Below, piece after piece: positions 30,139 through 41,864 of a DNA stretch of 64,000 bases (position 1 is its first letter; every line of letters begins with the position of its first letter). A program made the position numbers and the translations under genes. Where the stretch lies: positions 1 through 64,000 of IMG/VR virus record IMGVR_UViG_3300005323_000042; one strand, written 5' to 3'. The notes beneath the pieces are model-generated. The model was not told the origin of the DNA and ran no database searches. It saw only the letters and a list, made by a program, of their open reading frames with translations. This stretch comes from a virus (Duplodnaviria; Caudoviricetes).

Positions 30139-30753
30139 TTAAAGTTCTTTTAATCTTTTGTTTTCTTTTTCAAAATCAACTGATGGTTTTTCTTCTTTTT
30201 CCCCGATAGCGAATGGTACACTAGGAACATTGTTTGTCATGAGTAGTTCTGTTTGTGCGATAAGTTTTGTCAGTTCAGGCCATTCCATATTATCAAAGGT
30301 GCCTGCATCTACCTTAAGTGCTGCGGCAACATAATTTATAATTCTTCTTTCAATATCTGTTTCGGCATCAACTCGCATTGCTTCGATATCTTCAAATATC
30401 TTTTGAGGATATGCCGCTCCTGACATTGCAACAATGGCACTATATACATTCTCTATTGATCCAGCAGGAATGATTTGCATAAGTTCTTCAATAGATATAT
30501 ATCCATTTGCAATATCTGTCGGAGTCAATTCGCCTCTCTTGTATAATGCAAAAGGACACGCATATTCAATAACACATTGCTCAAATAACATATCCTTAAT
30601 GTCTTCCTCCATATTGGAAAACACTGTAAGCAGATTTCTGAACGACTTAAATTCACCCCAAGGTATAATATGAAAAACGACCGCATGGCCGTCTTCAGTA
30701 TTTATAAGGTATAGATTTCTATGTTGTTGTTTGGCTTGTAAAATGGAGTTCAT
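30139..30753 (-). CDS. Tail assembly chaperone-like protein 2 (204 aa)
   Basis: LFEQCVI and PAGSIENVYSAIVAMSG match LFNNCVL and GAGTVDAVAFQIKYASN of 36863..37366; precedes the tape-measure-like gene. Confidence 0.6.
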   Translation of the reverse strand: MNSILQAKQQHRNLYLINTEDGHAVVFHIIPWGEFKSFRNLLTVFSNMEEDIKDMLFEQCVIEYACPFALYKRGELTPTDIANGYISIEELMQIIPAGSIENVYSAIVAMSGAAYPQKIFEDIEAMRVDAETDIERRIINYVAAALKVDAGTFDNMEWPELTKLIAQTELLMTNNVPSVPFAIGEKEEKPSVDFEKENKRLKEL

Positions 30754-32561
30754 AAGGTATTGAGATCAATATTGATAAAAGACTCATTGAAATCCAGAGA
30801 CAGTACGGAGGAATTAAAATCATATATAACTTCAGATCCAGTCTCTCCCGGAAGATAATATCTTGTATGTTTGGTTGCAGGCTGTTGCCTGTTATCGTAA
30901 CGCTCTACCTTTACGCCAGGTATTGTGGATTTTGTATTTAATGTTTTCTGTGTCAGTTTATGAATAGCAACTTCACTGCTCCATTCAGAACTATTAGATT
31001 CACCGAAGATAGCCTTGTACCTGAATTTATATATATCTGTTCGTGGAACTGTATAAATATTAGAGGTAAGATTTTTCCAGGTTTTATTCTCATAAACCTG
31101 CGTAACGTAATCTACAGCATATTTAACTTCATCATAATCTATTATAATTTTGTCATGGTAAGGCCGTAAGGTTATATTCCCGATAGTACCGTAATCGACT
31201 TCTGCTGATACAGTTGCAGACCAGGATGTCTCTTCCAGTTCGTCAAATACATTTGTGTATTGCGCCTTGTATCTGAATGTGTATGTCCCGGGCGCAGGTG
31301 CCGTATAACTCTGACCACAACTTATATATCCGTCTCCGCCATCTACCTGAACTACATATGCAGAGGCATTTGTAACGGTTGAATATGATACATTTATTAC
31401 ATCGTTAGTAATAGTCAATTGTATTGTACCTACTGTTCCTATATGATCTGTAATTTCTATAGTTGATATTTCACTATAATCAGTTTCTGATGTGGCATTT
31501 AAAGCTTTATAACGAAAAGAATAAGTCCCAGTAATTAAAACCGTAACTGGACTTATTACTGCAACCCAATTACCATTTATATATTGTTCAATTATATAAG
31601 AAGTAGCGCAATCAACTAAATCATAAGCTATTGTAATTATTTTATTATTTGAAGATAGATATATAGAGCCAATTTGACATATTGTTTCTAATCCCTCTAT
31701 TATTTTAATTGCAAAACTTTCGAGCCTGCTTAAATTTCCTGATGCATCTTGTGTATAGAAAGAAAATGTTTCACTTCCCGTTACGTTACTATGCCATGTA
31801 TAAGTTTCCAGCGTGCCATCGTAAATAATAGTGCCGTCACTTTTCTTTATAACAGTTGAATTAAACGCTGACTGCAAATAGTTTTTCCATGTAAAAGTAA
31901 CCGATTGATTGTCTCCAGCTTTTATAGCAACGACTTCTAATGGTGGATGTAGTGGCAATGTACTTGAATAACCATTATCGGTTTTCCCATATCCTCCATT
32001 TTCAATCCAACCCGTTCCCCAAAAACTACTTGATCTAAATAATCTTATCCATAAGTCATAAACATTTTCAGTTTGATAGGCACTTTTAAGTAAAGCATAA
32101 TAACCCGCAACCATTGGTGTAGCCCAACTTTCCTCTGTAGCGTTTTCAACAGTACAGGAAAATAAATCCAACCCGGGACCATAACTTCTTTCATTTACAC
32201 TAACTCCACCGCCGATACATCTTGTTCCTTTCATTAAGAAAGCAGGAGAAGATAAATAAATATGAGAGTTACTGCCATGCGCATTAAATACTGCAATCCC
32301 ATATTCTAAAGCATGTTCCCATTCCAATTTATAGGAATAAACTCCGGAATAACTTCTTATAATTATTTGATAATTATTATCTATTGCATATTGCACACAA
32401 GCAGCTATCGATTTTTGATAAGTAACAATATTACCAGCAGGTGTACCCGTCCCAATTTCAGCTATATGGCAGTCCCAAGTGGCTACCTTTTCTAAAAATA
32501 CAAGTCTTACACTTTCTTCATGCGATTCATATCCAACTGTTCCTATTACTAATGCTTTCAT
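30750..32561 (-). CDS. Subtilase (S8)-like domain fused to FN3-like beta-sandwich repeats and a sheath-arm-like C-terminus (603 aa)
   Basis: AIDNNYQIIIRS, GIAVFNAHGSN, RSYGPGLDLFS and EESWATPMVAGYYALLK align by eye with the subtilisin C-terminal half; repeated YxFRYKA strands; C-terminal IPGVKV...IDLN. Confidence 0.6.
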   Translation of the reverse strand: MKALVIGTVGYESHEESVRLVFLEKVATWDCHIAEIGTGTPAGNIVTYQKSIAACVQYAIDNNYQIIIRSYSGVYSYKLEWEHALEYGIAVFNAHGSNSHIYLSSPAFLMKGTRCIGGGVSVNERSYGPGLDLFSCTVENATEESWATPMVAGYYALLKSAYQTENVYDLWIRLFRSSSFWGTGWIENGGYGKTDNGYSSTLPLHPPLEVVAIKAGDNQSVTFTWKNYLQSAFNSTVIKKSDGTIIYDGTLETYTWHSNVTGSETFSFYTQDASGNLSRLESFAIKIIEGLETICQIGSIYLSSNNKIITIAYDLVDCATSYIIEQYINGNWVAVISPVTVLITGTYSFRYKALNATSETDYSEISTIEITDHIGTVGTIQLTITNDVINVSYSTVTNASAYVVQVDGGDGYISCGQSYTAPAPGTYTFRYKAQYTNVFDELEETSWSATVSAEVDYGTIGNITLRPYHDKIIIDYDEVKYAVDYVTQVYENKTWKNLTSNIYTVPRTDIYKFRYKAIFGESNSSEWSSEVAIHKLTQKTLNTKSTIPGVKVERYDNRQQPATKHTRYYLPGETGSEVIYDFNSSVLSLDFNESFINIDLNTL

Positions 32562-32773
32562 ATAGGTTTATCATTCTCACGATCAACAATAATCTCTATT
32601 ACATCTGTACATCCTTTAATCAATCTTCTTGTATTTGTATCTGTATTATCTATTTCCTTTAATAAAGAACTGGTTATAAACAAATCTTTTATAGTTAAAT
32701 TATTTTCAGTTACTATGTTTTTTAATTCATAGCATTCATCATACTGCTTTTTTAGTTTTATCTTAACTTTCAT
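32558..32773 (-). CDS. Small hypothetical protein (71 aa), possibly a fibre assembly factor
   Basis: ATGA overlaps with both flanking genes; follows the fibre-like gene. Confidence 0.5.
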   Translation of the reverse strand: MKVKIKLKKQYDECYELKNIVTENNLTIKDLFITSSLLKEIDNTDTNTRRLIKGCTDVIEIIVDRENDKPI

Positions 32774-34284
32774 TCATTTGCACCAATAACAGTTAATGAA
32801 CCTTGAGCATTGTAATAAAACAATTTCTGAATACCCATATCCTCACCTCTGAATAGTGTACAATTATAATTACCATATACAGCTGTGGCATCGGTAAAAT
32901 CCACAGAGGTATTTTCATCACTAAAGAAATCTTCGATTCTATTATATCTGAAAAAGCTACTTATAGTACAGTAACCAAAACCTGAACCAACAGTATTATG
33001 ATTAAAACCCTCGCTTATAGAATGATGCTCAAAACTCTGCCCAATTGTATTATATTGGAAGTCTTTACCTATACAATTTTCATTACAATTGTATCCTATA
33101 CTATTGTAGGCAAAAGCTCTTCCAACAAAGTTTAAATTAAATCCTAAACCTATAACATTATTTTGGGTGGATAAAGCTAAAGAAACATCACCCATAACAT
33201 TACAATAAAAATCACCTAAAATAATGTTATCATTAAAATTGGTAAGTGTATTTAGATAACAATTATTCCCAAAAGTATTATGATTAAAACTAAAACCGGT
33301 AGAATTTCGACTAAAACCATTTCCTAAAGAATTGCTATAAAAATTGTTTGCATTAAGTGTATTATCAGTAAAACCACGCCCTATTTTATTATCATATACA
33401 ATAGTTCCAAAAAATACACTATTGCATTTACTTAAAATATCAAATGAAGAATTGTTCAACTCTGGTTTTATAATATTATTATAAATTGTTGTATAAGAAG
33501 ACTCAACGCCACTAATTGTAGGTGCAGTTGAAAACATTTTATAATCCATATAAAGAGAGGTGGTATTAACCGTAACAGGCCAGAAATTCCCATTAAGTTC
33601 CCAATTACCTTCAGTTGTACTTACATAAGATAAATCAGTCCATTCAAATTTTTTCCAACTTGATTTATTAGAAAATTGCTGTGCTCCTAAATCATTTAAT
33701 TTTATATATATTTCAGTAGTATTAGTTTTTTTAACTACAGTACCTCTACCATAATCATGATCAGCTCCAGTAGCATCAAGACTTGATGGTGAAATCTGCC
33801 ATCTACGAAATTTTACATTTCTGAAATCGAATGGTATATCATTATTCTTTGCAGTATCTATCCTGCGATAGATATAACCTTTAGTACAACCTGGAACTAC
33901 CACTTGATCACTTGTAACTTCATAATAAATTATATCTTCAGGAAAACTTGCACTATATGCTTCGGGAGCAAGTTTATTAACTGCGATTGCAGTAACTATC
34001 AATGGTTCTACTGCCGGAGTATTGATATCAGATGTTCTCGGAATTGTATGTACAGAAGCATAATCTGTAATTCTGTATCTACGTCCTATTATTAATCCCG
34101 AACTATTTATCAATGCAGTTAAAGTGGCATAAGTAATGTTTTGAATATTTGCTTCATAAAAATCTTTTTCAGTTTCGTCAATATTGACAGTAATACAGTT
34201 TTTCGTTTTATCGATAAAAATTTCACCATCCTTGAGCGATCCTTTATCGGTTGTTGTTCCTCTTCTTAATTGTAATGTGCCCAT
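32770..34284 (-). CDS. Fibre/receptor-binding protein with Mtd-type N-terminus and Asn-ladder beta-helix (504 aa)
   Basis: N-terminal LQLRRGT...GEIFID (major tropism determinant N-terminal type); C-terminal ~10-residue N-x-(I/V/F)-G-x-x-F repeats (NTFGNNCYL, NVIGLGFNL, NSIGYNCNE, NTIGQSFEH, NTVGSGFGY). Confidence 0.7.
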   Translation of the reverse strand: MGTLQLRRGTTTDKGSLKDGEIFIDKTKNCITVNIDETEKDFYEANIQNITYATLTALINSSGLIIGRRYRITDYASVHTIPRTSDINTPAVEPLIVTAIAVNKLAPEAYSASFPEDIIYYEVTSDQVVVPGCTKGYIYRRIDTAKNNDIPFDFRNVKFRRWQISPSSLDATGADHDYGRGTVVKKTNTTEIYIKLNDLGAQQFSNKSSWKKFEWTDLSYVSTTEGNWELNGNFWPVTVNTTSLYMDYKMFSTAPTISGVESSYTTIYNNIIKPELNNSSFDILSKCNSVFFGTIVYDNKIGRGFTDNTLNANNFYSNSLGNGFSRNSTGFSFNHNTFGNNCYLNTLTNFNDNIILGDFYCNVMGDVSLALSTQNNVIGLGFNLNFVGRAFAYNSIGYNCNENCIGKDFQYNTIGQSFEHHSISEGFNHNTVGSGFGYCTISSFFRYNRIEDFFSDENTSVDFTDATAVYGNYNCTLFRGEDMGIQKLFYYNAQGSLTVIGANE

Positions 34285-34302
34285 TGTTATTTTTCCTTAT
34301 AG

Positions 34303-34482
34303 TTATTTGTTCAAATCAATATTTCGATCGTACATCACTAAGTCGATATCTTCATACGTATCATTTAAGTCGATGTTTGTTGAAGTGGTGGAACTTGCGG
34401 TTTGTCGTGCCGGATTTTTTATTCTCTCTATTTCACCATAATAGACAAAAACTCCAGGCAAGTTATTGTATGTATTGTACAT
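34303..34482 (-). CDS. 59-aa microprotein with tail-sheath N-terminal-arm-like sequence (below ORF-track cutoff)
   Basis: MYNTYNNLPGVFVYYGEIERIKNPARQTASSTTSTNIDLNDTYEDIDLVMYDRNIDLNK; GGAG SD upstream; fills the gap before the fibre gene; N-terminus matches sheath MYNQYHNLPGVYV. Confidence 0.75.
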   Translation of the reverse strand: MYNTYNNLPGVFVYYGEIERIKNPARQTASSTTSTNIDLNDTYEDIDLVMYDRNIDLNK

Positions 34483-34543
34483 AACATTACTCCGTTGTTA
34501 TTTGATTGTATTGTGTTGTATTAAATCCCTGGTCCCGAAGAAA

Positions 34544-34951
34544 TTAGAATGTATTTATTATAGATGCTTTTAATGCTGTAGTCCCTTCATTAAAACAGGC
34601 AGCAGATGCATAGATATTTTGATTGTTAGTTGTGAATGTTTCCCATTTGCCGATACTGCCGACAGAACAATAACAATCTTCATATACCACTATCGGTACA
34701 TGGTTTATTATCAAGTTGCTGAAGATCTTTATTTGCATATCTCCGTGCTCGTCTTTTGCGGCAATGGAAACAAAGAATGGTTTATATGGTTTTAATCTGT
34801 CACTTAACTCTTCAAATATTATTTTGCATCCCCACTTGCCGTTGATGACATTATCTGATTGGCCATATCTCTGACATTGATGCTCACAGGCTATTGTATT
34901 AATTTTTGCAATGAAATCTGAGGAATTCGAATGTCTCTTTTGGATCGTCAT
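34544..34951 (-). CDS. Hypothetical protein (<=135 aa, start uncertain)
   Basis: Only ORF filling this gap; overlaps the upstream gene by 53 nt; no recognisable motif. Confidence 0.35.
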   Translation of the reverse strand: MTIQKRHSNSSDFIAKINTIACEHQCQRYGQSDNVINGKWGCKIIFEELSDRLKPYKPFFVSIAAKDEHGDMQIKIFSNLIINHVPIVVYEDCYCSVGSIGKWETFTTNNQNIYASAACFNEGTTALKASIINTF

Positions 34952-35225
34952 TACATATCCACGTAACCATGTTGTTGGTTTTTTCTAGTAGTTCGACATT
35001 AATCTTTTTATTACCAACATTTAATTCGTACTCACATTTTTCCTGCAGTTGATTATTATTAGTTTCTATCATTCCAGTAAGAACGTACTTTGGTTTGGGT
35101 TGTTGTTCCTTCATTACATAAATAGATCCCATTTCTCTTGTTCTTCTAAGAATAAACGACATTTTTGTAACAGGAATATCTCCCAGTGTTATTTTAAGTG
35201 TATCATTTGATAATATTGTATTCAT
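34899..35225 (-). CDS. Small protein with partial tube-fold resemblance (108 aa)
   Basis: TREMGSIYVMKEQQP resembles tube QREKGPIYTMRQSADP; KITLGDIPV resembles VIYINDMPL of 37386..38054. Confidence 0.4.
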   Translation of the reverse strand: MNTILSNDTLKITLGDIPVTKMSFILRRTREMGSIYVMKEQQPKPKYVLTGMIETNNNQLQEKCEYELNVGNKKINVELLEKTNNMVTWICNDDPKETFEFLRFHCKN

Positions 35226-35227
35226 TA

Positions 35228-35533
35228 TTAATCCGCATCTACTATATTTAATTTGTTAAGTAGGTTCTCGTATTCTTCATCTGTATTAATAATTCCGAAA
35301 TCTTTTGATTTGACATATTCTTCGAAGACGAATGTTTCACCTTTCTGTACATCACTGTTAGCATTAAAGAATAACATTACTTTATTGCCGGTAAGTCTCA
35401 TCTGGTGTGCAAATGATTTTATCAAAGATATATTATGTTTTTTAAGTCCGTTACTTATTGGCTGGGAACTCATTGTACCATTATCATAATAGTAAGAGAT
35501 CATATGATCTCTTACGTGAATAAGTATATTCAT
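35228..35533 (-). CDS. Hypothetical protein (101 aa)
   Basis: ORF with ATGA overlap to the upstream gene. Confidence 0.55.
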   Translation of the reverse strand: MNILIHVRDHMISYYYDNGTMSSQPISNGLKKHNISLIKSFAHQMRLTGNKVMLFFNANSDVQKGETFVFEEYVKSKDFGIINTDEEYENLLNKLNIVDAD

Positions 35534-35958
35534 TGTTTTTTATTCCCAATAAATTCGGGTAATTCACCACCTTCAATAACAACAGGGGCATTCTTGTGTG
35601 TAATTGCCAAATCAATGTTAAGCGCTTCAATATTATCCTGTAAGTATTTCGATATTTTGATAAAGCCTTTCTCTTCTATTTTGTTGTCAAACCCGCGGAA
35701 TTTTACTCTTGCAGGATATATATTGCAACCCTCATGAATTAATCGCAGTCTTTGTATAATTGAGTCGAGACGTTCTTTATCTTCTATTGTTGTGGCAGAT
35801 AACATCTTACCTAATTCTTGTAGTTCTTCATTTGGATTTTCGATATTATCGTAATCAAATACGATTGCCCAGCCAAAGAGATGGAGCGCCCTATTGGTCC
35901 ACCAATTTAAACCGGTCGCCCGGAATTCTTCCCAGTTTCTTCTTTCTACCATTTTCAT
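35530..35958 (-). CDS. Conserved hypothetical phage protein (142 aa)
   Basis: WEEFRATGLNWWTNRALHLFGWAIV...YPARVKFRGF pattern that I recognise from uncharacterised phage proteins; AAGGAAGGG SD. Confidence 0.65.
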   Translation of the reverse strand: MKMVERRNWEEFRATGLNWWTNRALHLFGWAIVFDYDNIENPNEELQELGKMLSATTIEDKERLDSIIQRLRLIHEGCNIYPARVKFRGFDNKIEEKGFIKISKYLQDNIEALNIDLAITHKNAPVVIEGGELPEFIGNKKQ

Positions 35959-35970
35959 TTTATCCCTTCC

Positions 35971-36384
35971 TTAAAATTTATTGTCAAGCATTACATTGTT
36001 AATCCCGGTAGCAATCATGTCTATTTGGTCTTCGTTCAACGCTTTATCCATCTTGAACTTTTCACAGATCCCGTGCATAACTTCATGCCAGATTGTTTGC
36101 CAGATATCTTCCTTGGTTCTGTCTTTAACATATACTCTTATTGTGCTTGTCCAATAGTCTATTTGTCCCCAGTAAGCTTCGCGTTGATGGACATCTACAT
36201 CGCAAGGATTATTGACGTACAATATTTTATAAGTGGTATCCAGTATTTTAACACTGGGCGGAAATTGACTTAACTTAATCTTCCTGCTGGGTTTCTGACC
36301 AGAAGGATTAATATTTGGCTTGGGTGTAATTGGCGGTGTATTTACATTACCACGATGTTCTTTATTCGGTATTAGTGTTTTCAT
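35971..36384 (-). CDS. HExxH zinc metallopeptidase-like protein (ImmA/IrrE-like, 137 aa)
   Basis: YWGQIDY...IRVY...QTIWHEVMHGI, a minimal zincin motif; AAGGGAAGGG SD. Confidence 0.65.
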   Translation of the reverse strand: MKTLIPNKEHRGNVNTPPITPKPNINPSGQKPSRKIKLSQFPPSVKILDTTYKILYVNNPCDVDVHQREAYWGQIDYWTSTIRVYVKDRTKEDIWQTIWHEVMHGICEKFKMDKALNEDQIDMIATGINNVMLDNKF

Positions 36385-36402
36385 TTACCCTTCCCTTGAA
36401 TG

Positions 36403-36852
36403 TTATTTTAATAAAGTGATGCCACCGAATGTATATTTGATAGTTCTTATAACGACAAGATCATCAACAGATATGCCCGATTCTTCTCCTATATAAGTAA
36501 GCCCGTAGAATTTTTTGGTAGCTTTATGTCCAAACTCATCAGCGAAGCATAATTCTATTTCATTGATAGATTCGAGATCATGCTCTTCTGTTGTAGTGAG
36601 ATCTACAAGCCGTATCTCACGTGCGCCACCAGGATAGTTTTTCCAGCTAATAGTTTGTGCAAACCCGTAGTCTTTACCATCAATTCTTAAGCTTACATCA
36701 GAACCACTGAAAATCACAGTACCTGTTGATTTTGGTGCAGTTACATACTCTATAGGCAAAGAAGGTTTTACCTTCTTGCCTTTGAACAGAGCGATTAGCT
36801 TTTTAATTAGCTTCTTTATGTCAGTATATAATGTATCCGGATAGTTATTCAA
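36403..36852 (-). CDS. Short tail-tube paralog lacking the central loop (149 aa, TTG start)
   Basis: FSGSDV...AQTISW and ADEFGHKATKKFYGLTYIGEESGISVDDLV match tube FGGSDI...LQAISW and ANEYGQSMKKVIVGLEILNEGGGVSVDDLV. Confidence 0.7.
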   Translation of the reverse strand: MNNYPDTLYTDIKKLIKKLIALFKGKKVKPSLPIEYVTAPKSTGTVIFSGSDVSLRIDGKDYGFAQTISWKNYPGGAREIRLVDLTTTEEHDLESINEIELCFADEFGHKATKKFYGLTYIGEESGISVDDLVVIRTIKYTFGGITLLK

Positions 36853-37385: not shown

Positions 37386-38054
37386 TTAAATTAGTACCTT
37401 TGCTATGAATTCATAACCGACAGATACGGGTGCCGCCGATGACTCTCTTGTCGTTTGCTGTGTGCGTATGAATGCATCTATAAATACCTTCTCTTCATAA
37501 TCTGTCGAATCGGCATAACTGCCGATTCTGAAATCGCGTATTTTTATTTGTAACGGACCTATAAATTCCGGATGAACAGGAGTGCCTTCGTCGGGACATT
37601 TCCAATATGTGTTCTTTAATGTCTTAATCGTTTCTGCATCAACTTCCTGTGCATACAGAAGTGTTTCCATATTATTGTAACTTGTTGAGAAATCTGTCAG
37701 GGGTTGAAAGTATTCGCCGGTCGCGTTTGGCAAATTTGTTTCGTTAGGCAGATGTACTCTTGTTGAACTAAGAGCTTCTTCAACAGTCTTGTCCTCTGAA
37801 TTCTTTTGTTCTTTTGCTTTATTAATGTGGGCAAGGATATAACCATTGTTTGTGTAATTAACTGTAAATGTGCCATTGGCTATTGCTTTGCCCATAATAA
37901 CAGTATCAAAATGATAACTCTTATATCCATATATCGGTATTTGTCCCGCAGTATATATTCCCATAATAGATGTCACTTCTGCAAGCGGCATATCGTTTAT
38001 GTATATAACTGCTTGCGATCCGGTAAAGTACTGTGTTGTAAGTCTTGAACTCAT
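37386..38054 (-). CDS. Tube-fold protein 3 (tube initiator-like, 222 aa)
   Basis: YFTGSQAVIYIND...IPIYGY...GKAIANGTFTVN is homologous to the major tube. Confidence 0.7.
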   Translation of the reverse strand: MSSRLTTQYFTGSQAVIYINDMPLAEVTSIMGIYTAGQIPIYGYKSYHFDTVIMGKAIANGTFTVNYTNNGYILAHINKAKEQKNSEDKTVEEALSSTRVHLPNETNLPNATGEYFQPLTDFSTSYNNMETLLYAQEVDAETIKTLKNTYWKCPDEGTPVHPEFIGPLQIKIRDFRIGSYADSTDYEEKVFIDAFIRTQQTTRESSAAPVSVGYEFIAKVLI

Positions 38055-38860
38055 TACATAAACCTCAGTCTGTCCTGTTTAATCTGTTCTATTGCAGTAT
38101 TATAATCTTCAACTGTCAGTTTCGAAGAGTTAATGCCATTGTTGTTTATTGAATTAATTAATTCTGTCGATGTAACAGAACGCATAGGGGAGACGTGTCT
38201 GGCGAGATAGTTAACAGAATTTTCAGTGATAAGATCATTTACAGAGTGGACCTGCCCTTCATTCATAAAATCCACGCCGTAGATGCCGAGTCTTGACATA
38301 TTACCAAGTTCATTTTCAAAGACAACGAGTATATCAAGTGGAGGCAACTGGTCAATACGATATAGTTTACTGTCAACTGCTTCAGCAGATTCATATGCAA
38401 GAGCATAATCAAAAAGTTCATGCAATATGCGGTCTTTCATAACGGTAAAAATCATTGTACCGGCTATTGTCACATTACCGCGTGTAAAACCTCTGGCCGC
38501 AGTATAACCAAGAGATCTTACTGCTTCCTTGTCCCTGTAAACAGAATAACTTAATGTTTGTATTTCATCCAGTTCAATTATGGTCCTTGATACTGTAAGA
38601 TTATCCCATGCTTTTTTAAGTTTATCCGCTTCTTCTGCAAAGTTTGTAATCTCAACACCGTTATCAATATCAGAAGATTCATCAGCCAAATCCTGAAGAC
38701 TTTTGACCTGATCTTTGTATTCCTGCATAACGCTGTTTACATTTGACATGATTGCATATACCTTAACATCGGTTCCGGCATATGAAACGCTGTCATTATA
38801 TTTGAGCGTTTTATTTTCTATATCTATAACAGTTGTCGATAGAACTTCTGTTTCAGCCAT
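38054..38860 (-). CDS. Tube-fold protein 2 (268 aa)
   Basis: SYAGTDV, IQTLSYSVYRDK...GFTRG...IAGTMIF, LPPLDI...NEGQVHSVNDLITE are homologous to the major tube. Confidence 0.75.
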   Translation of the reverse strand: MAETEVLSTTVIDIENKTLKYNDSVSYAGTDVKVYAIMSNVNSVMQEYKDQVKSLQDLADESSDIDNGVEITNFAEEADKLKKAWDNLTVSRTIIELDEIQTLSYSVYRDKEAVRSLGYTAARGFTRGNVTIAGTMIFTVMKDRILHELFDYALAYESAEAVDSKLYRIDQLPPLDILVVFENELGNMSRLGIYGVDFMNEGQVHSVNDLITENSVNYLARHVSPMRSVTSTELINSINNNGINSSKLTVEDYNTAIEQIKQDRLRFM

Positions 38861-38910
38861 CAGTTTCTCTTGAAATTAATATTGCAAATGTTGGAACAGA
38901 GATTTGTCAA
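38861..38910 (-). promoter_or_regulatory. Putative sigma70-like promoter (TTGACA-N18-TGCAAT) re-initiating after the tube terminator
   Basis: Perfect TTGACA at 38910..38905 immediately after the terminator; weak -10. Confidence 0.4.
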
Positions 38911-38916
38911 ATCAAC

Positions 38917-38957
38917 AAAAAAAATCCCCTTATCCTGTAGAATCAGGAAAGGGGATT
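38917..38957 (-). terminator. Intrinsic terminator after the major tube gene
   Basis: Minus strand AATCCCCTTTCCTG-ATTCTA-CAGGATAAGGGGATT followed by a T run. Confidence 0.8.
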
Positions 38958-38979
38958 GTATAATCGATTTTACTATTTA

Positions 38980-39639
38980 TTAAGTTGAGGTTACAACCGG
39001 CGTTCCGCCTGCTCTTGTAAGCCTTAACCATTGTGTCATTGAACGTGCAATATAGGTGTACTGTTCTTCCATAACGAGATCGTCAACTGATACCCCGCCA
39101 CCCTCGTTGAGGATTTCAAGGCCAACAATGACTTTCTTCATGGACTGACCGTATTCATTTGCAGCAATCATATTTACATCGAAAGGTAAAATCTGATCGC
39201 CATACCAAGCCTCGACGTTCTTTCTGGAGAATGTTGAATTATCCGCATCATAAGGTGAATAATCAACATCATTAACGCCGTCTTCAAATAACTGATCTAA
39301 TGTGACCGCACCCTCGCCAGGATCGGTTGCTCTCCAATCGGTTGTATTAGCCCAGAATTTTCGGCTCTCGGCAGGAATATCGTTTAAGAAAGCCTGTCTG
39401 TCTATTGTAATGAAAACAAGTGATCCTGCAATTGCCCGTTTACCTCTTGCGAATGCAAGCGGATCTGCAGACTGCCTCATAGTATATATCGGACCTTTCT
39501 CTCTTTGAACAGACCACGAAATTGCCTGTAGAGTGCCAAGCATTTTGTTTCCTACAACAGCAATGATATCAGAGCCGCCAAAGGACACATAGGCACCTTT
39601 TTCCATGTCTTGAGTATTATAACCTGTACTAACTGCCAT
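38980..39639 (-). CDS. Major tail tube protein (219 aa)
   Basis: Immediately after the sheath; SFGGSDI...LQAISWSVQREKGPIYTM...FARGKRAIAGSLVF tube motifs; strong SD and downstream terminator. Confidence 0.85.
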   Translation of the reverse strand: MAVSTGYNTQDMEKGAYVSFGGSDIIAVVGNKMLGTLQAISWSVQREKGPIYTMRQSADPLAFARGKRAIAGSLVFITIDRQAFLNDIPAESRKFWANTTDWRATDPGEGAVTLDQLFEDGVNDVDYSPYDADNSTFSRKNVEAWYGDQILPFDVNMIAANEYGQSMKKVIVGLEILNEGGGVSVDDLVMEEQYTYIARSMTQWLRLTRAGGTPVVTST

Positions 39640-39662: not shown

Positions 39663-41864
39663 TTATTTACTTAACTTTGTATAGATTGTTAATCGTCTCA
39701 TCTCACTCGCTGTAACAATTTCAAGTTTCAGAGCGGCTTCACCCCTGATTTCCATAGCACGTGTAGCTTTGATTGTGGCATTACCACCAAGGATATATGG
39801 TGATGTGCCTTCTGCAAAGCGTTTCAGCAATGAACGTATCTCTTCCTGAAGGGACAATCTTATATTTGAATTTGTAAGTGAACCGATATATTTTTCAGCG
39901 ATCTTGCGGATGGACTCAAGTATTACAGCTGCTACTCTGCAGGTTGATCTGCGGGACCAGTCTGATGTTGACAGGGCGCCTGTCGGGGCATCTACTACTT
40001 TTACATAACCATCGGTATTCGTGTCATATATTATATAACCAGCGCCAACGAGGGCATCTTTGGATACTTTTGGAAGTGTGAACGGCAGTCTTGCTTTGAT
40101 AGAAACTGTTTTGCCGGTTGCAGGTATATTAGGATCTAGTTTCATTATCAAACCAGCGTATACGCCAGCACCAGGTGTCAGATAGCCAGATGTGGTTCCG
40201 TCATAGGATGTGTTAACAATAAGCGGATGAGCTATAACATCAACGTACCTTCCGATATCGGCGACCTGTCCATTATCAGTATCAACGATTGGCGTTCCAT
40301 CAACATATCCGTTGTCTGTTCTAAACAAACCTGCGGAAACGTTTCTTGAACCAACTCTAAATTTATAACCCAACAGACCTGTTCCTGAACGTGTAATTGT
40401 ACCAGACGTTATATCATATGTCGGGGCTTTGCCGATCCAGGTTGTAACTGCAGGTTTAGAATAGTTTTTAGGACCAACCATTGCGATAACACCGGAAGCC
40501 TCATTGGAGTTGGTGCTCAGACTGTCACAGTAAACGGCGAGCTGATGACCGAAGTTTGCTTCGTTAAAAGAAATATCAGGAGCGGCTATTGCTGTTGTAA
40601 TGCCTGCATCTGAGGTACATGTCAAAACTTTTTCAATTGACAACTTGCCGGTTGCAAAAGCTTTAGCTGCAAAACCATCTATACCAAGTTCATAAGCTGA
40701 AGGTAAGGCATCAGCGGTATCTATATTGACGTCAAATGCATTTTTGAATGCAAAGAACAACTGTCCATTGAATGTAAATTCATATATCTTACCGAGAAAA
40801 TCGCCTGTAGGACTTACATAATTAGGACTGTCTGTTTCATCATATTTACAGAAACCATCGTTGTCAACAACATTGGGAGCGTTGAAATAAACACCGGTAG
40901 GATAAACCATATCAATATTTGCTGCTTCAAGATCCCAGTAAGCCCTTTGTAAAGCTGCAAACTTTTCATTGTAAGTAAGATCAAGGCCGTCATTGGCGGC
41001 AACAAATTTAATTTTATGTTGTGCCGTACCTGCTTCTGCGCCGCCGGTTATTGTCCAGTTTTCAGCGTTAGTTACTGTAACAACGCCGTCTGCATATGTA
41101 AGCTTTTTTGATACTGTGACTGTATATGTAGAACTGTTCAATGTTACATAGTCAATTATATATACACCGTCGCCAGCTGTACCAGTTGTCTGTGCAAGTT
41201 CAACTACCTGGCCGGCCTTAAAACTGTTGTCTGAAGTTGTGAATGTTTTACTGTCTGTTACAAATGCAATGGTTTTTGTCGAACCAACATTGTAAGAAGA
41301 ATTAGTGAAATTCTTCAGATCTGCAAAACTTGGACAACTTGCCAATGTTGACGAACTGCCTATTGTAATATTGGATGCTGTAAGGGTTGCGTCGCCATAT
41401 ACTAAAAATTCGCCATTATCAATTCCTGCTGCACTATCAAAAAGAATTTCACCGGTTGTTGCATCGAGTATTCTTATTGTTTCTGCTGAGGTTGAAGTAT
41501 TATAATTGTAATATAATTTATATTCTGTTCCCGCTCCATCGTATGCTTTCTTTGTTACGATTGTATGACCGTTTACAAAGTCAAGCATGACAGGTGTAGC
41601 ACCAATTCTATAAGCAGCAACATATTTTGCACCACTTTCAAGAACCTCGTAAATACCTTTCATTAAAGTGCCTTCTTTGGTTCCATCAGGATCGTATAAA
41701 TATTCTGCAGCCATAGTATCAGTAACTAGATACAGTGAGTTCGGTCCGTCAGGAGCAGTTCCCAAGACCAAAGTCACTTCGCCAGGTATGCTTTCGATAA
41801 CACTTAAGTTACCGTCCTCTTTGTTAACATAAACGCCTGGAAGATTATGGTACTGATTGTACAT
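39663..41864 (-). CDS. Contractile tail sheath protein (733 aa)
   Basis: N-terminal NLPGVYV...LVLGTA; C-terminal STCRVAAVILESIRKIAEKYIG...LQEEIRSLL...LEIVTASEMRRLTI sheath pattern; precedes the tube. Confidence 0.9.
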   Translation of the reverse strand: MYNQYHNLPGVYVNKEDGNLSVIESIPGEVTLVLGTAPDGPNSLYLVTDTMAAEYLYDPDGTKEGTLMKGIYEVLESGAKYVAAYRIGATPVMLDFVNGHTIVTKKAYDGAGTEYKLYYNYNTSTSAETIRILDATTGEILFDSAAGIDNGEFLVYGDATLTASNITIGSSSTLASCPSFADLKNFTNSSYNVGSTKTIAFVTDSKTFTTSDNSFKAGQVVELAQTTGTAGDGVYIIDYVTLNSSTYTVTVSKKLTYADGVVTVTNAENWTITGGAEAGTAQHKIKFVAANDGLDLTYNEKFAALQRAYWDLEAANIDMVYPTGVYFNAPNVVDNDGFCKYDETDSPNYVSPTGDFLGKIYEFTFNGQLFFAFKNAFDVNIDTADALPSAYELGIDGFAAKAFATGKLSIEKVLTCTSDAGITTAIAAPDISFNEANFGHQLAVYCDSLSTNSNEASGVIAMVGPKNYSKPAVTTWIGKAPTYDITSGTITRSGTGLLGYKFRVGSRNVSAGLFRTDNGYVDGTPIVDTDNGQVADIGRYVDVIAHPLIVNTSYDGTTSGYLTPGAGVYAGLIMKLDPNIPATGKTVSIKARLPFTLPKVSKDALVGAGYIIYDTNTDGYVKVVDAPTGALSTSDWSRRSTCRVAAVILESIRKIAEKYIGSLTNSNIRLSLQEEIRSLLKRFAEGTSPYILGGNATIKATRAMEIRGEAALKLEIVTASEMRRLTIYTKLSK

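Follow-up and report, generated by a model that had tools for sequence, protein, structure and literature searches.

A 59-residue protein of an uncultured phage opens with a copy of the N-terminal arm of the phage's own tail sheath: a possible strand-donating tag

In contractile tails, the arms of the sheath protein, N-terminal as well as C-terminal, combine with a hairpin from a next-ring subunit into a four-stranded hinge sheet (10.64898/2026.09.14.750843; PMC10304247), the N-arm strand of the P2 sheath protein gpFI corresponding to Gly7-Val10 (10.64898/2026.09.14.750843). The baseplate-side ring is completed by a sheath initiator and the head-side ring by a terminator, both of which imitate sheath strands (PMC10491603, PMC11972413). 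Terminators mostly donate one strand to the top ring, with the phiTE terminator donating three (PMC11972413), and therefore the N-arm position of the top ring would be unfilled in typical tails. Examples of strand donation are provided by the pyocin R2 collar, the C-arm of the Milano terminator, the C-terminal extension of the phiTE terminator and the termini of P1 gp24, and by sheath initiators of the P2 gpW and T4 gp25 type. All these are conserved core tail proteins with folds of their own, whose imitation of sheath strands is known from structures. Hinge-sheet strand mimicry by core terminators and initiators is accordingly part of the published record, where no paper was found on a stand-alone micro-protein, or a terminal tag, copying the sheath arm in sequence.

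The gene considered here, ORF59, lies in a window of 64,000 nucleotides (the whole stretch of DNA under consideration) taken from an 81-kb IMG/VR virus record, which represents the genome of an uncultured large contractile-tailed phage and is estimated to be 61% complete. Bases 1-64,800 of the record form one minus-strand late operon, and the same genotype turned up in five samples, on five contigs of up to 181.5 kb. The features on which the comparison of sheath and ORF59 is based are the following.

39663..41864, minus strand: contractile tail sheath gene, 733 aa, identified by phrog_16991 and Foldseek
41823..41864, minus strand: sheath N-terminal arm, residues 1-14, the original of the copy
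34490..34493, minus strand: Shine-Dalgarno motif GGAG of ORF59, 7 nt 5' of the ATG, read from the sequence
34303..34482, minus strand: ORF59, 59 aa, coordinates including the stop codon, with a sole possible ATG
34441..34482, minus strand: ORF59 residues 1-14, copy of the sheath N-terminal arm, with NLPGVFV
34378..34440, minus strand: ORF59 residues 15-35, polar Ser/Thr-rich linker, defined by composition and presumably flexible
34306..34377, minus strand: ORF59 residues 36-59, three I-D-L units at 9-residue spacing

The original prediction took as its premise that the phage builds a contractile sheath with an N-terminal strand arm, and this premise was borne out by several lines of evidence. 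The 733-aa protein matches the PHROG family phrog_16991, annotated as tail sheath, with E=3e-52, and its AlphaFold model (15 homologues, mean pLDDT 67) retrieved in Foldseek the solved sheaths of phi812, phiCD508, T4 (gp18), phiKZ, P1 and AFP. In the modelled monomer, residues 1-28 have no structure (pLDDT below 50), as would be expected of an arm that folds only against a neighbouring subunit. Residues N7, L8, P9, G10, K15, D17 and G18 are kept in fifteen sheath homologues that share 38-54% identity. Sequence searches of the PDB with the sheath profile, and with the 20-residue arm, gave nothing useful.

Micro-proteins of about 59 aa are frequently omitted from phage annotation. The 59-aa frame announced for positions 34303..34482 of the minus strand is indeed there, with an ATG start, and so are the three I-D-L units attributed to it (I-D-L-N, I-D-L-V and I-D-L-N). 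The product is small and acidic in composition, and the ORF was predicted as a gene on 5 independent contigs. It sits 61 nt from the preceding 135-aa gene and 18 nt from the following 504-aa gene; without it there would be a gap of 259 nt at this point, which would be the widest of the whole operon, the biggest gap between tail genes being about 119 nt. Codon usage gives ORF59 a log-odds of +0.22 bits per codon, against reference values of 0.00 to 0.49 for real small genes of the operon, a mean of 0.31 (sd 0.12) for 59-codon windows of long genes and a mean of -0.09 (sd 0.18) for spurious plus-strand ORFs. The two plus-strand ORFs that overlap it score -0.38 and -0.04 bits per codon. ORF59 is thus very probably a real gene, from which we infer that it is translated. 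It is in the same frame as the 504-aa gene, and a fusion of the two products by read-through was considered and rejected as unlikely because the intervening stretch 34285-34305 of the minus strand (TAA CTA TAA plus 12 further bases) contains a double stop.

The central observation is that ORF59 starts as the sheath of the same phage does. Aligned from Met1 to Met1, 10 of the first 13 residues are identical, one more than the nine originally claimed. Pairwise BLASTP aligned residues 1-13 of ORF59 with residues 1-13 of the sheath (E=3e-5), and when ORF59 residues 1-20 were compared by Smith-Waterman with every segment of the 81-kb genome in six-frame translation, the sheath came out best with a score of 59, the runner-up scoring 42. 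In an anchored comparison of residues 2-13 over all 3,828 protein pairs of the genome, ORF59 and the sheath shared 9/12 positions and the runner-up pair 5/12. The likeness extends to the sheath family as a whole: a profile made from the first 20 columns of the sheaths of 14 relatives, with the phage's own sheath left out, matched ORF59 residues 1-14 with E=2e-4, the following match having E=0.59. The N-L-P-G of the family is present in ORF59, with the G-V-F-V strand after it. At position 6, ORF59 carries the family-typical Asn where its own sheath has His; Tyr2 and Tyr5 of ORF59, on the other hand, are found among the 15 sheath homologues only in the phage's own sheath. These two shared tyrosines point to an arm that derives from the sheath of this lineage, or has co-evolved with it. 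The arm observation is statistically solid; the gene is so far known from a single genotype.

Compared with known sheath N-arms (the S4 strand, as in P2 gpFI Gly7-Val10, P1 gp22 and the phiTE sheath), the ORF59 arm likewise occupies the extreme N-terminus, has G-V-x-V after N-L-P, matches its own sheath family's profile and, by prediction, has no structure when alone. Unlike those arms, it is attached to no sheath body and has a 59-aa gene to itself, located in an accessory island. The likeness ends after residue 13-14, and the invariant K15, D17 and G18 of the sheaths are replaced by Y15, E17 and I18; neither BLASTP nor Smith-Waterman detected any likeness past residue 13, and none of the sheath domains that follow the arm is present in ORF59. 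A single-chain handshake, in which the ORF59 C-terminus would imitate the sheath C-arm, was rejected: profiles of the last 15, 25 and 45 sheath columns matched neither ORF59 nor the tail of the 603-aa protein described below.

The island in which ORF59 resides, and the two larger products that enter the discussion, are placed as follows.

30750..36852, minus strand: accessory island of 10 genes, between conserved 167-aa and 204-aa tail genes
32770..34284, minus strand: 504-aa fibre-like gene, beginning 18 nt past ORF59 and served by a separate AAGGA ribosome site
30750-32561, minus strand: gene of the 603-aa protein
30753..30923, minus strand: C-terminal module of the 603-aa protein, residues 547-603, with IPGVKV, a linker and three D-containing units

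The gene order within the island is 149, 137, 142, 101, 108 and 135 aa, then ORF59, then 504, 71 and 603 aa. Relatives of the phage have the order sheath, three tube-like genes, a gene of ~167 aa, one of ~204 aa and one of ~1,170 aa, and in eight of the related loci (L007, L008, L010, L013 and L015-L018) the ~167-aa gene leads directly to the ~204-aa gene; the island was absent from every relative examined. Since another locus, L014, carries a different gene (451 aa) at the same junction, this could be a hot spot for insertions. The first island gene, of 149 aa (36403-36852, minus strand), is a shortened tube paralogue, with BLASTP E=7e-7 to the 219-aa tube protein and a match to phrog_9206. 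The second product, of 137 aa (35971-36384, minus strand), has an H-E-x-x-H motif and matches phrog_1233, a family of unassigned function, with E=1e-16; it may be a small metallopeptidase.

Searches for ORF59 homologues returned only ORF59 itself, in a word-indexed search of 5.8 billion proteins, in phmmer against 1.84 billion representatives, in IMG/VR and in the ESM Atlas. Three weak phmmer matches were judged spurious, as they corresponded to PD40 propeller or low-complexity repeat proteins. Similarly, no second copy of the arm was found in relatives, when 80 related loci were inspected over 10 kb on each side of the sheath gene. The five contigs of the genotype are ~100% identical, with 0-3 differences in 7.5 kb. 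Because ORF59 has no homologues, the island is missing in relatives and the contigs are identical, conservation neither supports nor refutes a function for ORF59. ORF59 is very probably a small late gene restricted to this phage lineage.

A second element of the original prediction was that the module formed by ORF59 also ends the 603-aa protein, and this stands in part. The 603-aa protein has, within its last 57 residues, I-P-G-V-K-V, a linker and the units Y-D-F-N, L-D-F-N and I-D-L-N. The three units have the same register and the exact same 9-residue spacing in both proteins, ending 2 residues before the stop in the 603-aa protein and 1 residue before it in ORF59. In the genome translated in all six frames, PGVxV has only three occurrences, namely in the sheath, ORF59 and the 603-aa protein, and the three-unit repeat pattern is confined in the genome to the latter two. 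This pattern, which was defined post hoc with both sequences already seen, had 0 matches in 2,000 shuffled proteomes and 0 in the 80 related loci. Against this, BLASTP between ORF59 and the 603-aa C-terminal end is not significant (E=0.13), and in the genome-wide Smith-Waterman comparison the 603-aa protein ranks 4 with a score of 43, an unrelated protein reaching 47. The AlphaFold model of the 603-aa protein is uninformative in this respect, residues 541-603 being unstructured (pLDDT ~30). On balance, the two modules probably have a common origin. The further claim that the 603-aa tail mimics the sheath arm found no statistical support, the sheath N-terminus profile leaving this protein undetected.

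Taken together, these data are compatible with a model that has some prospect of being right, short of an even chance, in which ORF59 serves as a tag that donates a strand to the hinge sheet of the sheath, most probably at the head-proximal ring. The protein would comprise three parts: a hinge-strand copy of 14 residues, a linker of polar character and, at the C-terminus, a strand-prone piece of 24 residues. The N-terminal strand would take the place that the N-arm of a subunit from the next ring normally has in the four-stranded hinge (handshake) sheet. A free position of this kind is assumed at the head-proximal ring only, beside the strand of the tail terminator, which would make six per virion; Pfam and PHROG searches recognised no tail terminator in this phage, so that the free slot is an assumption of the model. 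The C-terminal piece would hold a product of the island, most simply the 504-aa fibre encoded 18 nt downstream, and the 603-aa protein could be tethered by a related contact through its similar C-terminal module. The proposed mechanism is that of terminators and initiators, which are not sheath proteins themselves and make an end ring's hinge sheet complete by strand imitation. Unlike these, ORF59 is an orphan micro-protein and a direct sequence copy of the arm, perhaps accompanied by a C-terminal tag on a second protein.

The strand-donating idea is physically reasonable. The island is absent from relatives and therefore its products need a route of attachment to the conserved tail, and the presence in the island of a tube paralogue also speaks for docking. 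Against it, the copy spans just 13-14 residues and has lost K15, D17 and G18, the six sites would be contested between ORF59 and the 603-aa tail, and in the 603-aa protein the arm-like strand lies within the chain and is missed by the sheath profile. The broader proposal, that accessory islands carry their own plug as a portable way of adding appendages to a conserved contractile tail, must be considered doubtful at present. If the arm copy does dock in the hinge sheet, copying a dozen sheath residues would offer new fibres or enzymes a simple evolutionary route to the tail, and strand mimicry, known for core terminators and initiators, would be found in accessory micro-proteins as well. The arm copy would then also be a natural peptide tag by which cargo could be displayed on phage tails, tailocins and other contractile injection systems.

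The alternative that survives best, although we regard it as unlikely, is that ORF59 is a small factor for fibre assembly or joining that works through its three-unit C-terminal piece, with the sheath likeness reflecting generic strand chemistry or shared ancestry and no shared binding site. The position of ORF59, 18 nt 5' of the fibre gene, agrees with such a role, and what it has in common with the 603-aa protein lies mainly in the C-terminal repeat and not in the arm. The Mtd identity first proposed for the fibre-like 504-aa protein found no support in family searches, with 0 Pfam and 0 PHROG families matched. The N-terminal domain of the 603-aa protein, put forward as a subtilase, also matched 0 Pfam or PHROG families, and one Foldseek match, to the serine peptidase Vpr, appeared among many to FN3, the assignment otherwise depending on motifs recognised by eye. 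In 6 homologues of this subtilase-like domain the Ser145 and His95 columns are invariant, and the position of the usual catalytic Asp is occupied by Gly. Five homologues of the 603-aa protein share only the first ~290 residues, their ends being unrelated and none of the five carrying the C-terminal module; each is preceded, in unrelated phages, by a gene of 58-86 aa. In one case (L096) this small-gene/subtilase-like pair adjoins a fibre gene, from which it can be argued that the whole region is a fibre accessory cassette. What stands against the fibre-factor explanation is an anchored sheath match far beyond the genome background, which moreover fits the family profile and includes two residues, Tyr2 and Tyr5, unique to the phage's own sheath.

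Over residues 47-490, the 504-aa protein has 42% identity with proteins from other viral contigs, which are large and AT-rich; these relatives do not share the N-terminus and have no ORF59-like gene upstream. Co-variation was approached through the homologues of the 603-aa and 504-aa proteins, the ends being unrelated in the former and the N-terminus missing in the latter.

It is quite unlikely, in our estimation, that ORF59 is an evolutionary leftover, i.e., that the island picked up the first codons of a sheath gene as it formed or moved, the resulting ORF being functionless or translated without consequence. Several facts are nevertheless in keeping with such an origin: the resemblance to the sheath is limited to residues 1-13, codons 1-3 and the codon for Tyr5 have the same DNA sequence as in the sheath gene, the truncated tube paralogue shows that the island holds another derivative of a tail gene, and constraint is not visible in a protein with neither homologues nor population variation. 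The remaining DNA comparison points the other way. The DNA upstream of ORF59, including the ribosome site, is unrelated to that upstream of the sheath gene, and 5/9 identical residues with degenerate codons differ at synonymous sites, a combination that led us to reject a recent DNA duplication as the source of the arm. Because these residues were kept although 5/9 synonymous sites differ, the match is held at the protein level. Furthermore, the 46 codons after the arm have stayed open, with phage-like codon usage and the same 9-residue phasing as the 603-aa C-terminal end, which speaks against a relic.

A role without cargo, in which the arm copy, by binding sheath subunits before their assembly or the end at which the sheath grows, would limit polysheath or mark the sheath end, is very unlikely. 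This regulator or cap would draw on the same sequence evidence of arm mimicry as the strand-donating tag, and small size and acidic composition would suit it; however, all relatives build the same tail without ORF59, which is hard to square with a core assembly role, and the presence of the same module on the multi-domain 603-aa protein would be left unexplained. The weakest alternative, that ORF59 is a chance ORF and the region a non-coding spacer or an RNA element, is highly improbable: its shortness and its orphan status without homologues would be in line with it, but the ribosome site, codon usage, strand and would-be gap length are all against it, as are an Rfam search of the region that matched no family and an ordinary RNA folding stability (z=0.11), on which an RNA element was rejected, and promoter or terminator signals of which none exceeds background.

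Some minor observations were made in the course of the analysis. The overlap of a small gene (58-86 aa) with the start of a subtilase-like gene recurs in the unrelated phages L096, L097 and L098, the pair being represented here by 32558-32773 and 30750-32561 (minus strand). The AT-rich viral contigs that harbour relatives of the 504-aa protein reach up to 235 kb, and on one of the loci (L092, 3315-8982) the relatives of its central and C-terminal part are three tandem paralogues (508, 525 and 596 aa) that have their N-terminus in common. Locus L010 (15408-20102), in the place of the ~1,170-aa gene that follows the tail chaperone-like genes, encodes a protein of 1,564 aa with weak intein and LAGLIDADG matches. 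Finally, the tube and its paralogues (38054-39639 and 37386-38054, minus strand) match phrog_9206, which is labelled major head protein; this label looks wrong for a tube family, because of the position of the genes and their tube-like paralogy.
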